A stretch of 41,272 bases of DNA from Craspedostauros australis (taxonomy: Eukaryota): positions 1 to 41,272 of the forward strand of contig JALAGF010003411.1 of NCBI GenBank assembly GCA_030167865.1, read 5' to 3'. The notes beneath the pieces were generated by a model. That model ran no database searches. It had not been told where the DNA came from and saw nothing but the letters and a program-made list of their open reading frames with translations. Positions within the stretch are counted from its first letter, which is position 1, and each line of letters opens with the position of its first letter. Shown here piece after piece: positions 32,583-41,272 of the stretch. Made by a program: the position numbers and the translations under genes.

Positions 32583-35363
32583 TTATGATCCCATCACATC
32601 TTCGATGGCGGCGGCGATAGCATCCATCTCACCCTCCGGCATGGTGGCTGGCGGCTCGGTCTTCTCCTCGGCCTTCGGGGTGATCTTGCGACCTTCCATC
32701 ACGGCCTTGCGACTCAACGAAATCTTGCCCTTGTTGTTCAGACCGATGTACATCACATCCAGCTCTTCGACGCCCAGGCTCTTCACGAAGCCGCCGCAGT
32801 TGCGAATGCGTTGCTTGTCCAGCTCGGAGATGTGGCACAGTCCCTCGAGTCCTGGCGTGGAGCCGTCCTCGGCACCGGGCAGGATCTCCAGGAAGACGCC
32901 AAAATCGTGGATGCCCGTGATCTTGCCCTTGTAGATCTTGCCTTCCTCGGCCGGTGGACCGACGTACTTGGGGCGTTCCTCTCTTCGTCCGCCACGCCCT
33001 CCACCGCCGCCACCACCACCGCTGGTGAGGGCCTTGACGAAGTCCTTGGCCTCGTTGGCCCTGGTGGTGTTGAAGGAGCAGATCTGGACCATTCCGTCAT
33101 CCGTCACGTCGCATGCCTCGAGTTCGAAGTCCTCAATGATCTGACGGATTTGCTTGCCGCCAGGTCCAATGATCTTACCGATTGTTTCGAATGGCACATT
33201 GAACGAGACCATCTTGGGGACGGTGTCGGGCAGCTCGTCGCGCGCAGATGGGAGGACCTTCTCCATGGCATCCAGGATGTGGATGCGTCCAACGCGGGCC
33301 TGCTCCAAGGCACGTTCCATGGTGGCCAACGTCAGACCTTCGCACTTGATGTCGAGCTGGAAGGTGGTGATACCCTCGCGGTCACCGGCAACCTTGAAGT
33401 CCATGGTTCCGAGAGCGTCTTCGGTTCCCAGAATGTCGGAAAGGATGATGGCATCATCATCGGACACGCCACTCTTGTCATCCAGGAGCATACCCATGGC
33501 GATGCCGGCGATTGGACTCTTGATGGGCACGCCGGCATCCATGAGGGCGAGGCAGCCGCCACAGACGCTCGCCATGGAGCTGGAGCCGTGAGATTCGGTG
33601 ACCAGCGATTCCACACGAATTGAGTATGGGAAGTCTTTTTCGCTTGGGAGTCCCGGGATGAGCGCGCTGTGTTTCAAGCCGTGAGAGAGTTGTACAGTGC
33701 AGAATAGAGTAAAGTAGAGCCATGAGGATCACCATCGTGGTTAGTTCCGGGAATGCGAACAAGCAACTGACTGTGCGCACCTGCAAGGCATATAACTCAG
33801 GGCATGGCTCGCGAAAGGGCGTACTGTTGAAACACGCCAAGTGAACTCAACGTCCACATCGTCTCTAACTTACCGTTCCGCCAAGTTGCCGTGGCCAACC
33901 TCACGACGTCCCGGCATTCCCACGCGGCCCGTTTCTCCGACACAACTGGGCGGGAAGGTGTACTGCAAGTAAAATCGCTTCTGCTCCATTCCATCCAGCT
34001 TGTCAATCTTCTGCTTCATGCTGGAACCACCCAAGGTCGCGGTGGCCAAGGCCTGAGTTTCACCGCGCGTGAACAAGGCAGAACCATGCACTCGCGGCAA
34101 CATGCCGGCCTCCATGTCGAGATGTCGAATCTCGTCGAACTTGCGCCCGTCGCATCGCACGCCCACCGTTTTGGCACGCACGAACATGCGGCGGCACAGC
34201 AGATCCTTGAAGGCGCCCATGAGGGCTTTCTCTTGATCGGGGAATTCCTCCTCGAGCTCTTCGACCATGGCCCTTTGCAGCTTCCTCATGATGGGACCCT
34301 GGGTCGTTTTGGTGCCGCCACCGGCGTACATTTCATCGATGTGGTCTGTCATGATCTCATTGACGCGTTCCTGAAGTCCCTCGATGGGTGCTTCGATCGT
34401 GTCCATCTTCTTTTTGATGCCGACCGTGTTGCCGAATTCCTGGACGGCTTCGCAGATGGCCTGGATGGCGTTGTGGCCGAAGGTGACGGCCTTGATCATG
34501 GTGTCCTCGGGCAGGAAGTTGGAGGCACCCTCGATCATCAGCACGGCGTCCTTCGTTCCGGCGACGACGAGCTGCAGGTCGCTGGTCTCCATCTGCTGGT
34601 TGGTGGGATTGAGAACGTATTCGTCGGTGGCCTTGTAGTATCCCACCATGACGGCGCCCACGGGCTTCGTGAGCGGCACGTCGGAGAGGTAGAGCGCGGT
34701 GGCGCTGGCCGTGATGGCCAACGGATCGCACGATCGGATTCCGTCGTACGACAGCACCCAGCTCAGTAACTGCGTCTCATGCCTCCACCCTCCCGCGATC
34801 AAGGGTCGCAGCGGGCGATCGATCAGTCGGCACGTGAGGATTTCGTGTTCGGCGGGGCGTCCGTCGCGTTTGTTGTAGGATCCGGACGTCGTTCCGGCCG
34901 ACGAGAAGCGTTCCTGATGCTCGACGCTAAGGGGTAGGAAGTCGATGCCCTCCTTGGGTTCGGAATCGCGGGCGGCCGTGGCGTACAGGACGGTCTCGCC
35001 GCGCGTCAAGGTGATGGCGCCGGCCGCCTGTCGTCCGAGCTTTCCCGTTTCAATGACGATGGTCTCTTCTGGCACGAATTCAGATGGTTTGGCATCTTCG
35101 GCAGTCGCGGCTGGCGAATCGTCGGTCTGCTTCTGTCCTGGCAGACTGCGAATGGTGAGGGTGTGGACAGCACCGCCGGATGGGCCAGTGTTCGTGGTCT
35201 CGATGGAGAAGAAGTCAGTCTCTGCCGCAAGCACGGTTGGTGGCGTGGTCTGTGCCGATCTGCCGACCACCAGCGCTGGCTTTCGTAATCTGCGGAAGGA
35301 GTTGCCGTTCGGAGAGAATGCCGCTGTCAAGACGACCGTCGTTGTGAGCACCAGCAGTCTCAT
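32583..35363 (-). CDS. pnp: Polyribonucleotide nucleotidyltransferase (PNPase), probably plastid-targeted, 2 exons, about 857 aa
   Basis: Exons 35363-33874 and 33666-32583 (GTAAGT...CAG) restore [26 protein letters not shown]. Motifs include ETGKLGRQA, RLIDRPLRP, RCDGRKFDEIR, HGSALFTRGETQ, GSSSMASVCGG, GTMDFKVAG, KH (IIGPGGK) and S1. The N-terminus MRLLVLTTTVVLTAA-FSP is a signal peptide plus ASAFAP-like motif. Confidence 0.95.
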
Positions 35364-35560
35364 GGTGCCAGAGGAATATGAGTATGATCCCTTGTGGTTG
35401 CTCGTGGTTGCTCGTGGCTGCTTCAGGGTTGGGCGCTCTCTGTATTCTGTGTATTCCAATGTTCTTTGAATACGTACGAGTGAGTATGGACGAGTGAGTA
35501 TGGACGAGAGAAGAATGGAGTACACTACTCTAGTCTACGTTACTATTTGTTGGATTGCAA

Positions 35561-38181: not shown

Positions 38182-38756
38182 GGTGAAGTGTTGCGGTAAT
38201 CTGTCCAATTATATTAAAGTGGTGGACTGGGAGCGAATCTCAATGCTGTATAATATTATATCTGCGTTCGAAATTGTTCACGAAAGGCAAAGAAAACGAT
38301 GATGAAGTTGATGATGAAGTTGATGATGTGATGGCGATGGCTGACGATGGGATCATGTGATGTTCCAGCACTTGCGGTGTGCCAAGGAAGACAAAAGCAA
38401 ACACCATTCGAAAACACGCGCACTTGCCGACTGCGAGGCACCCATGATGAGTTTGGTTGGTGGGAGATGGCGGGAAAACACTGACGACGGACGCACAAGA
38501 ATGAACGTAACCACGACTGACTGATTCCAAAGTGATTCTGTGTTGGTGGTCGCTGCCGACCCATCACCAACAGTTTGCGACAAACAAAGTGCACTTCCGT
38601 GGGTTCATCCACTCACCCACTCATCCATCGCGTCCATCGCGTCCATTGCATCTAGCAATCCAACATCCTCGAAGTCTCTATCGACCACTCTGACACGCTG
38701 TCAGAAGGAAACTCGAAGGACGGAAACGCGAGGGAAGGAAGGAAGAATGACAAGAG

Positions 38757-40136
38757 ATGAGAGCGTTTTACTTTCGAAGAAAGATGAAACGACCTTCTAT
38801 GCCAACTCTGTCGGCATTGGTGCTCCTGTCGTCGACATTGCATCTACTGTCGCTATTAACACTGCCATCATTTCGTGATGGAAGCACCGCACTCTTTTGT
38901 GAGGCACTCAGCACCACAGGAGCAGTGACACCAACGCCGTCCATCATTGAACAGCAGCGGCAAAACCAAATGCATCATCAGCACCAGCGTGACTACCCAG
39001 ACTCATCTGCGGACACCAGCGCTGAATGCGATCTGCGTGCTCCCACCTCGTCTCGCATTGACGACAAACACGAAATTCTCGCGAGCAAATGCCAGGACTA
39101 CACCATTCCGAATCGACGCATCCAATACAAGCACGTTGAATGGAGCGGTTCTGCTCTGCCGATGCAAATCTTCTCTGCTCCGAACAGCGAGAAGCAGGCG
39201 CCGAACTACAAAACCAACCTTCCTGCGGGTCGCAAACCCACCTCCCCAAACGACAATGATGTCGACCTCAGTTCCATCAGCATAGAAGAGCTCCAATCCA
39301 TGAATCTCTCCAAATCGTCGCATGAACTCCTCAAACGATATTCCGAACTCTCCGAACGACAGCAGAGGCAGCTCATCCAGAAGATACGTGCCGAGCATCG
39401 CGCGAGCCAACCACTGGATCCAAATCTGATGGAGATTCTGTACTGCGACGAGCACATCTGCGTCGCCAACAAACCTAGCGGCATCCTCAGCGTCCCTGGC
39501 CCACGGCGCAATCCTTCCTTGGCGAACCTGCTGTACGACGCTCTGCAACCCACCGATCTGGATTCCGTTGATCAGATGATCGTGCATCGGTTGGATATGG
39601 CGACGAGCGGCATCATCGTCTACGCGCTGACACGCCAGGCCTTGTGCCAACTGCACTTGGATTTCAAACAGCGGAACGTCATTAAGATCTATCACGCGCT
39701 CCTTCCAGGACACTTGGACGATCGATACGCGGAAGGCGAGATCGATGTCACGATGGAACGAGATCCCAACAATCCACCCTACATGCGCGTCTACAACGTC
39801 GCGACGGCCGACTTGGACAAGGAAACGCCAGCATTCTCGCCGGATCACAAGTTCTTTCGAGAATCCAAAAAGACCAGCCAGACCACGTACCGCGTATTGC
39901 GACGGCACACCAGCGGCAACGATCCCATGACGCGCATCGAACTGAAACCATGGACGGGACGGACGCACCAACTGCGAGTGCATTGCGCGCAAGTGTTGGG
40001 ATATCCAATCTTGGGTGATGAGATCTACAGGTCGGAGGATTTGGACATTCCCTTGTGTTTGCATGCGCACAGGCTGTGCATCAATCATCCCATCTCAGGC
40101 GCACCCATGATCTTTCAAGTCGATCCACCTTTTTGA
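38757..40136 (+). CDS. RluA-family pseudouridine synthase, probably organelle-targeted
   Basis: NKPSGILSVPG, catalytic VHRLDMATSG, TGRTHQLRVH, GYPILGDEIY and LCLHAHRL. A hydrophobic signal-peptide-like segment precedes CEA-LS. The true start may be a downstream ATG (38784 or 38799). Confidence 0.92.
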   Translation: MRAFYFRRKMKRPSMPTLSALVLLSSTLHLLSLLTLPSFRDGSTALFCEALSTTGAVTPTPSIIEQQRQNQMHHQHQRDYPDSSADTSAECDLRAPTSSRIDDKHEILASKCQDYTIPNRRIQYKHVEWSGSALPMQIFSAPNSEKQAPNYKTNLPAGRKPTSPNDNDVDLSSISIEELQSMNLSKSSHELLKRYSELSERQQRQLIQKIRAEHRASQPLDPNLMEILYCDEHICVANKPSGILSVPGPRRNPSLANLLYDALQPTDLDSVDQMIVHRLDMATSGIIVYALTRQALCQLHLDFKQRNVIKIYHALLPGHLDDRYAEGEIDVTMERDPNNPPYMRVYNVATADLDKETPAFSPDHKFFRESKKTSQTTYRVLRRHTSGNDPMTRIELKPWTGRTHQLRVHCAQVLGYPILGDEIYRSEDLDIPLCLHAHRLCINHPISGAPMIFQVDPPF

Positions 40137-40537
40137 AACTACACCGTTCTTTTCGGTTGGAAATAGGACGCAATGGAGTGCTTGTATTAACATGCTCTTG
40201 AATCATAATACATTAAGGTATAGTAGTAACGACAGCACTCTAACGAGAGATGTGACGAAACCGCATGGCGTAATTGATTCTTTCGTGAATCTGACATCCT
40301 CGATTCAGTCATTCCATCAGTTCATACCATTGCGTTTTCTGCATTTCTTTGTCTTGCTGCGTTCTTTGGGATTGCTTGTGATGTTCTGTGCCTCGCTACA
40401 ACTGCGGCATCAGACAGATAATCGTTCCGTGGAGGCGTCGCTTGAGAGGAGTTCACTTGGTTGCTCGTCTTGACAATCGCTCTGCAATATCATACGCAGT
40501 CGTGCGAATGCTCAGCCTTTCTCTTTCCCTCTTCTTT

Positions 40538-41272
40538 CTATTTATCAGCGTCCACCCCAATTTTCAGCACTTCCAATGCAGCCACGATATCTGCCACCGG
40601 CAAGTCTTCACCAGTCTCTTCTTGGTAGGAGTACCTGGGCTTGCCTTTCGTATCGAACAGTATCAAACCGCCTTTCAGTAGACCTTCTCCTTTCGTATTC
40701 CCGCTGATATTCTTCTCCTGAATCCGACTTATCCAACTGAAGACGCCCATCATCATGCTCCACAGTGCCGGCAAGTCTGTGGCACGTCGATCACCCAGCG
40801 CCTGATAGAATGCGAACGATTTATCGCAAAAGAGCGGCGCGTCAAGAAAATACTTCTGGGAGAACTCCATGAGACCTTCATCGTCGATGCCCGTCTCCTT
40901 GACAACACCGAACAGTCCGAAACCCTCCAATGAATTTGTGTCGGCAGCAAGCGCGCTCAAGGTAAGTGCGTGCTCCCGACACAAGAATCATCCTGGTCGG
41001 CGAACGACGAAGCAAATGCCTAGAGAGAGAGATTGTGCGTTGCGCAGCGCAGCGCAGAAAATGCAGAGCCGAGTTACGCAGCGTTAGTTGTGCTTTCGTT
41101 GAGACGCAACACAGCGCAGCATAACGCAACACAGCATACTGTGGCAAACTGCGGGTCGACGTCCACTTACTCCCGTATTTCCCAGTCTGTTCTCGGATCA
41201 TCTCGCGACTTCGCAACACATCAATTTCAGAAACGGAGTCCTTCGTGATTCTCAATTGGACCATCTGTTTGG
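40538..41272 (-). CDS. AhpC/TSA peroxiredoxin-like 2 (PRXL2A/SelU-like) protein with in-frame TGA; probable selenoprotein; 5' end may lie outside the window
   Basis: Upstream exon ending at 41171 (GTAAGT donor), intron 41170-41020 (polypyrimidine + TAG), exon 41019-40538. The splice gives KYGSICFVVRRPG-TGA-FLCREHA...LFGVVKE...FYQALG...ISGNTKGEGLLKGG, a PRXL2-type thioredoxin fold. TGA at 40990-40988. Confidence 0.85.

Follow-up and report, generated by a model that had tools for sequence, protein, structure and literature searches.

A probable SelU-type selenoprotein gene with an in-frame UGA at its redox centre in the nuclear DNA of a diatom-like alga

Introduction

The SelU (SELENOU) selenoproteins were reportedly first described by Castellano et al. 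in 2004. SelU proteins of algae, fish, and birds share a thioredoxin fold of the AhpC-TSA_2 type, in which selenocysteine (Sec) replaces the first cysteine of a CxxC motif, and they also share the recoding of a UGA codon by means of a SECIS element in the 3'UTR; Sec- and Cys-containing forms alternate among relatives. The canonical eukaryotic SECIS element follows the consensus AUGA-AA-GA. PRXL2B, of which the solved structures 9us9 and 9usa are available, and the mammalian proteins PRXL2A and PRXL2C belong to the same Pfam family. Mammalian PRXL2 proteins carry a cysteine where the gene described here would carry Sec, and nothing in the present analysis supports a prostaglandin-type substrate in a diatom.

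According to Lobanov et al. (PMC2375036), the diatom Thalassiosira pseudonana has two SelU selenoprotein genes and a sequenced tRNA-Sec, and the Sec machinery of diatoms is known from the same text. In Jiang et al. 2020 (PMC7539508), Sec-containing GPX, SELENOU, SELENOT, and TXNRD are reported from more than half of 36 algal genomes, and diatoms are credited with 20-44 selenoprotein genes; SelU thus ranks with the most widespread selenoproteins of algae. The statement of an earlier note on this DNA that SelU occurs in algae, including diatoms, agrees with the T. pseudonana genes, as far as these are set out in PMC2375036. The present gene is likened to those genes by their published description, and no orthology to either of them is implied.

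Here we describe a gene at one end of a window, that is, the whole stretch of 41,272 nucleotides that was analysed. The gene very probably encodes a SelU/SELENOU (PRXL2, Pfam AhpC-TSA_2) selenoprotein, its UGA being recoded as Sec and its SECIS lying in the 3'UTR. Because SelU selenoproteins of diatoms have been in print since 2007 (PMC2375036), the novelty of the find is low: the gene is a further member of a known selenoprotein family and adds no new biology on diatom SELENOU.

Gene Structure and Transcript Evidence

Both coding exons of the gene in the window sit within its last 735 bases, on the minus strand (Table 1). When the sequence is read directly (exon/intron boundaries marked by a slash), the first of them ends in the donor ..GGG A/GTAAGT, and the second, preceded by ..CTCTCTAG, follows the acceptor ..CTCTAG/GC, which confirms the splice of 41171 to 41019. 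The joined exons read ..GKYGSICFVVRRPG-TGA-FLCREHA.., in the context GSICFVVRRPG-TGA-FLCREHA, and the spliced piece comprises 192 codons (576 nt), among which the TGA at 40990-40988 is the sole internal stop.

Table 1. Features of the SelU-type gene in the window.
Feature	Position	Strand	Evidence
3' end of upstream intron, acceptor AG 41266-41265	41265..41272	-	transcript contig diverges from window at 41265; 5' exon(s) outside window
Internal coding exon, 94 nt, MVQLRITKDS..GKYG plus first base of a Ser codon	41171..41264	-	sequence; transcript contig at 41170-41265
Intron, 151 nt, GT..AG	41020..41170	-	contig joint skips 151 nt, ends CT..AC on + strand
Last coding exon including stop TAG (40540-40538), AhpC-TSA_2 domain	40538..41019	-	sequence; Pfam; PRXL2B match; transcript contig
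In-frame TGA, very probably read as selenocysteine (U of UxxC)	40988..40990	-	contig identical there; same column in 28 homologue loci
TGT, putative resolving Cys of the U-F-L-C motif	40979..40981	-	sequence; PRXL2B alignment
3'UTR up to end of transcript contig (contig end, no mapped poly(A) site)	40221..40537	-	transcript contig
SECIS-like stem-loop, AUGA 40312-40309, GA 40284-40283	40270..40326	-	best covariance-model match in window; MFE fold of same shape

Transcript evidence comes from the public run X1, which contains 59% of the sampled words of positions 39900-41272, two further runs (X2 and X3) containing next to none. X1 had been labelled 'RNA?' by guess, and its RNA origin is deduced from the removed intron: a single contig of 1115 nt covers 40221-41018 and 41170-41265, exactly skipping the 151-nt intron, and is therefore derived from spliced RNA. 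The contig differs from the window by two mismatches only, at 40681 and 40749, and is identical to it at 40988-40990; as the TGA is present in an RNA-derived contig, it is no local assembly error. The coordinates of the splice and of the TGA given in the earlier note thus proved correct throughout, in the direct reading as well as in the transcript contig, in which the TGA is kept, being neither replaced by TGC or TGT nor spliced out. The alternative acceptor CCAG (ending at 40993) also leaves the TGA in frame, as had been claimed, and is unused in the sole transcript contig covering the gene. The mature mRNA retains an in-frame UGA, and the coding frame is conserved to either side of it, as seen in the transcript contig and in the homologous loci described below.

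The end of the window cuts the gene. The transcript contig leaves the window at 41265, next to an acceptor at 41265/41264, and extends 221 nt upstream, and the gene has one or more further 5' exons past 41272. Rather than the start codon, the ATG at 41264 probably encodes an internal methionine, because the contig continues upstream of it and because the database protein P0037 has 50 extra N-terminal residues. At least the 3' two-thirds of the gene, which is nuclear, has introns, and belongs to a diatom-like alga, are present in the region. Within the intron, positions 41036-41133 hold many short repeats of the GCGCTGCG and GTGTTGCG types, which produce a chance-level Rfam miRNA match (17.2 bits, E 6.7).

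Protein Family and Redox Site

Translation of the last coding exon through the TGA as a residue gives a protein of 159 aa (P0001), which matches the Pfam family PF13911 (AhpC-TSA_2) with 53 bits (cut-off 27) and an E value of 5.4e-14, over profile positions 2-113 of 114. Among solved structures, P0001 matches only 9us9 (E 2.5e-8) and 9usa, both of them entries of prostamide/prostaglandin F synthase (PRXL2B), the alignment spanning query residues 5-147 with a best-stretch E of about 1e-7. By this match, the encoded protein is predicted to adopt a thioredoxin-like fold.

The first Cys of the CxxC motif of 9us9 is aligned with the TGA (RRPG-U-FLC-R against RRFG-C-VVC-R, written RRFGCVVCR in 9us9), the pattern RRxG-C/U-xxCR being in register between PRXL2B and the window gene. 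The same residues are in register with RRPG-C-xxC-R of the Cys-containing database homologues P0007, P0016, P0020, P0021, P0034, and P0035. The assignment of the TGA to the first Cys of the AhpC/TSA_2 motif, proposed in the earlier note, is borne out by the structural alignment and the Pfam match, and the roughly 150 aa of family-like sequence said to follow it are found as 149 open codons, up to the TAG at 40540-40538, with a near-full match to PF13911.

TGA and Cysteine Codons in Homologous Loci

A scan of metagenome contigs yielded 36 related loci, mostly metatranscriptome contigs of about 1 kb. The codon at the U position is TGA in 31 loci and a Cys codon in 5, a count that overstates the number of independent lineages because many of the loci are near-duplicates (for example L004/L005, L020/L022, L009/L025, L031/L032, and L033/L034). 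A motif regular expression recognised TGA in 28 loci and Cys (TGC) in two, L031 and L032; the six loci that it failed to match were read by eye and have TGA in L035, L025, and L030, and Cys in L013, L033, and L034. The TGA of L035 is located after an intron. No TGG was seen at the Sec codon among the homologous loci.

In the codon alignment, the 28 loci matched by the expression and the window gene share the TGA in one column, flanked by the conserved residues GS-I/L-CFVVRRPG on its upstream side and xxCRE on its downstream side. Around the TGA, the homologues have open reading frames of up to 199 codons on the upstream side and of 144-189 codons on the downstream side. The alternation of TGA and Cys that the earlier note proposed to look for among orthologues thus occurs at exactly this codon.

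Two loci show peculiarities at the redox site. In the genomic contig L025 (positions 1850-2130), an intron appears to interrupt the Sec codon, with a deduced reading of ..RRPG TG/gtaggt ... cag/A VLCREE; the SECIS of L025 is identical to that of the transcript contig L009. In L030 (positions 250-520), P-L-V-R follows the TGA and the resolving Cys at the third residue is missing, which could represent a variant active site or a contig error.

SECIS Elements in the 3'UTR

The 3'UTRs of the homologues carry stem-loops of the form gaAUGAc..helix..GA. The Rfam search at E values up to 10 returned no SECIS in positions 39900-41272 or in the 3'UTR alone, the only matches being chance-level ones to snoRNA, miRNA, and CRISPR families. 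Rfam release 15 returned no SECIS in 20 homologous loci either, several of which have clear AUGA/GA stem-loops showing covariation, and, because such clear elements are missed, the Rfam negative carries little weight. A strict ungapped pattern scan (AUGA/helix/AA-or-CC/GA) gave no candidate in the window and convincing elements in about 10 homologues, for example ..cgaAUGAcgggaucuc..gagaucc.cGA.. with a flanking helix I, and relaxed constrained folding proposed 12 candidates in the window, as well as candidates in most of the homologues.

For covariance modelling, 20 homologue elements were aligned with MAFFT, and eight of them with a misplaced 3' GA were dropped (L001, L003, L010, L011, L016, L018, L019, and L027). 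The remaining 12 elements form the model R1, with helix I and helix II specified; a second model, R2, comprises 18 sequences. An alignment, A4, containing three doubtful low-score matches was set aside. R1 recovered held-out elements in the 3'UTR, on the gene strand, of L025 and L012 (39.7 bits each), L029 (27.8 bits), L003 (24.9 bits), L036 (18.1 bits), and L017 (17.1 bits). Among the dropped candidates, those of L003, L010, L018 (12.4 bits), L016 (10.6 bits), and L019 (8.9 bits) were found again. R1 missed the candidates in L001, L002, and L027. In the 18-sequence alignment, 15 of 16 pairs vary on both sides and 82% of the cells are paired, as against 36-50% with slid partners, counts that lean toward structure because the elements had been pre-picked by the AUGA..GA pattern and the alignment had been fitted to the model.

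The models were run against all 41,272 bases of the window on both strands, with filters off and E values up to 10. Both place the same minus-strand stretch, 40326-40270, at the top: R1 with 16.3 bits and E 0.059 (next best 10.3 bits, 7 matches), and R2 with 19.1 bits and E about 0.016 (next best 10.5 bits, 6 matches). The stretch is part of the 317-nt 3'UTR, in the orientation of the gene and about 225 nt past the stop, and the chance of a top match landing in the 3'UTR is about 317/82,544, or 0.4%.

The candidate is 57 nt long, with a helix II (40308-40285) of 6-8 bp, a loop of 5-10 nt, a flanking helix I, and 24 nt between UGA and GA. The unconstrained minimum-free-energy (MFE) fold of 40330-40266 has the shape of a SECIS: a helix I broken into three short segments, AUGA and GA in an internal loop, a helix II of 8 bp with one bulge, and a 5-nt loop about 9 nt from the UGA. 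The candidate shares with the canonical element (Rfam RF00031) the 5' AUGA and the 3' GA of the internal loop that separates helix I from helix II, as well as the location in the 3'UTR. In contrast to the canonical element, it has no Rfam match at E up to 10, a distance of about 9 nt from the UGA to the loop, and a loop (GAGGAUGUCA, or GGAUG in the MFE fold) with neither AA nor CC, and it is also unusually compact when set against the elements of known SelU genes. Several of the homologue elements have CC, or nothing obvious, in place of the AA of the loop. Taken alone, the candidate is weak, and its fold is no more stable than those of shuffled sequences (z -0.45; 63 of 200 shuffles fold as well). 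On balance, 40326-40270 is more likely than not the functional SECIS.

The main alternative leaves the selenoprotein in place and moves its SECIS: the functional element would occupy another part of the 3'UTR or be located downstream of position 40221, where the transcript contig stops, a point that is no mapped poly(A) site. The missing apical AA/CC and the short helix II of the candidate speak for such a displacement, as do further AUGA..GA folds at 40493-40426, 40206-40111, and 40088-40004. However, none of these folds is among the seven matches of R1 or the six of R2, and two fall beyond the limit of the transcript contig, within or adjacent to the convergent pseudouridine-synthase ORF (38751-40136). 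Compactness itself is not peculiar to the candidate, as the element of L021, equally compact (24 nt from UGA to GA) and with an AA loop motif, reaches 55.8 bits with R1, L021 being among the 12 sequences of that model. A SECIS elsewhere is considered the less likely case. Another AUGA..GA fold of the window, at 40456, was also set aside, being reported by neither model.

In the Cys-form loci L031 (981-1048) and L032 (884-951), which have TGC at the redox site, an AUGA..hairpin..GA stretch is kept at the 3'UTR position that it occupies in the TGA-form locus L027 (774-841), 54 of 68 bases being identical to the latter; the covariance models give no score to this subfamily. The stretch may be a fossil SECIS left after a recent change from Sec to Cys. 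A tentative combined reading, for which we would claim somewhat less than even chances, is that 40326-40270 is a working, minimal diatom SECIS and that the Cys-form L031/L032 separately keep a fossil element. If true, the apical AA/CC motif and the usual length of helix II would be dispensable for Sec insertion in this lineage, and a functional compact element of this kind, with neither AA nor CC, would widen the rules of SECIS finders for stramenopiles.

Reading of the In-Frame UGA

The reading of the UGA as Sec, already put forward in the earlier note, is supported by the TGA retained in RNA, the alternation of TGA and Cys, purifying selection, and the SECIS-like element in the 3'UTR. Selection was gauged by dN/dS (Nei-Gojobori) in the sequence downstream of the TGA, in the closer pairs of homologues, in which it ranges from 0.06 to 0.23 (L017/L015, 0.06; L020/L024, 0.08; L011/L016, 0.13; L020/L021, 0.21; L012/L015, 0.21; L028/L029, 0.23). 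Between the window gene and L001, L002, L003, L004, and L007, dS is saturated or undefined, the nearest loci having 62-65% amino-acid identity, and the purifying selection consequently holds for the family and not for the window copy alone. Relaxed selection downstream of the TGA, which the earlier note had named as an argument against its own reading, is thus replaced by purifying selection at the family level.

These data bear directly on the view that the TGA is a true stop, the locus being a pseudogene or encoding a short N-terminal peptide, with the downstream frame as a relic or a separately translated product. TGA does end other ORFs of the window, and gene callers treat the locus in just this way. 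Against this, the TGA is kept in 31 of the 36 loci with conserved residues on both sides and the low downstream dN/dS given above, the downstream frame is open for 149 codons with a full-length Pfam match, and a spliced transcript and a SECIS-like element are present, so that a true stop appears very unlikely.

Slightly less likely still is that near-cognate decoding or a reassigned code inserts Cys or Trp at the UGA, with no Sec involved. A tryptophan does stand at the site in two database proteins, P0004 and P0024. However, 5 of the 12 domain-bearing ORFs of the window, the convergent neighbour included, end at TGA, which is therefore no general sense codon in the window. TGA and Cys moreover alternate as in known Sec/Cys families, with no TGG seen in the loci, and SECIS-like elements accompany the TGA forms. 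The least probable explanation, for which only a generic possibility and nothing specific was found, is that the TGA arose by an error in sequencing or assembly, represents a strain variant of TGC/TGT, or is removed or edited in the mRNA, as the separately assembled X1 contig has the same TGA (though X1 may share the strain), homologues from many samples have it as well, and the splice in use keeps the codon.

Proposed Mechanism

Under the favoured reading of the locus as a SelU selenoprotein gene, the mRNA spliced from 41171 to 41019 would have its UGA at 40990-40988 recoded to Sec with the help of the 3'UTR SECIS, for which 40326-40270 is the best candidate. As in established eukaryotic Sec decoding, SBP2 and eEFSec would deliver the Sec-tRNA to the UGA, and the resulting protein would have a thioredoxin fold and, as its redox centre, U-x-x-C. 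If it works like the Cys-containing PRXL2 proteins and like established thioredoxin-fold CxxC/UxxC oxidoreductases, its selenolate would attack an oxidised substrate, for example a peroxide, an endoperoxide, or a disulfide. The Cys located three residues on would then resolve the intermediate as a selenenylsulfide, and a thiol reductant would regenerate the centre. The actual insertion of Sec, the catalytic cycle, and the substrate of the gene product are all deduced in this manner.

Database Proteins and Annotation Errors

The protein search gave 35 matches, of which 21 were aligned; the 14 shorter matches (125-156 aa; P0012, P0014, P0015, P0018, P0022, and P0025-P0033) were left unaligned. 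Among the 21 aligned homologues, 13 begin just past the TGA, two have W there, and six have Cys, the latter being those listed above for the RRPG-C-xxC-R register. The W of P0004 and P0024 is most simply explained by gene calls made under a table in which TGA is Trp.

A further protein, P0037 (source label MMETSP1442), which comes from a cluster listing outside the 21, is at least 90% identical and has its 50 additional N-terminal residues before MVQLRITK, an extension that resembles the N-terminus of the Cys homologue P0021 from the diatom Grammatophora oceanica. The middle of P0037, ..REMIREQ-LGNTGAFASSFADQDDSCVGST-ALTLS.., corresponds to the +1 frame of the spliced mRNA over the junction and the TGA, after which the protein is back in frame. 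The frame jump is the work of a frameshift-tolerant ORF caller avoiding the stop, presumably ESTScan. Since P0037 follows the +1 frame across both the junction and the TGA, it confirms both independently, in a second transcript assembly.

The earlier note expected gene callers to truncate or mis-splice the gene, and truncated and misread forms are indeed found in the database, with starts after the TGA (13 of 21), W at the site (2 of 21), and the frame-jumped P0037. Standard callers will truncate or frameshift the SelU gene, or insert Trp in it, and, as the gene is mis-called in these ways, selenoproteome counts and redox-enzyme inventories of the alga and of marine metatranscriptomes would miss it. 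The value of the find lies mainly in the correction of annotation.

Genomic Surroundings

Outside this gene, the window consists of unremarkable eukaryotic nuclear DNA with a GC content of 54%, and ARAGORN found no tRNA in it. The nearest neighbour of the SelU gene is the convergent plus-strand ORF at 38751-40136, which has 461 codons, matches PseudoU_synth_2 (E 1.3e-24), and ends at TGA; only about 85 nt lie between its stop and position 40221, at which the SelU transcript contig ends. Other genes of the window encode a WD40 protein, an EMP70 protein, an LRR protein, a helicase, a BMT5-like methyltransferase, a GT61 glycosyltransferase, a MINDY deubiquitinase, and an FUSC/ALMT-like membrane protein, and two ORFs are of the RNase_PH type. 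The latter are adjacent to each other on the minus strand at 32583-35534, carry RNase_PH, RNase_PH_C, and KH_1 domains, and are probably exons of one polynucleotide-phosphorylase-like gene.
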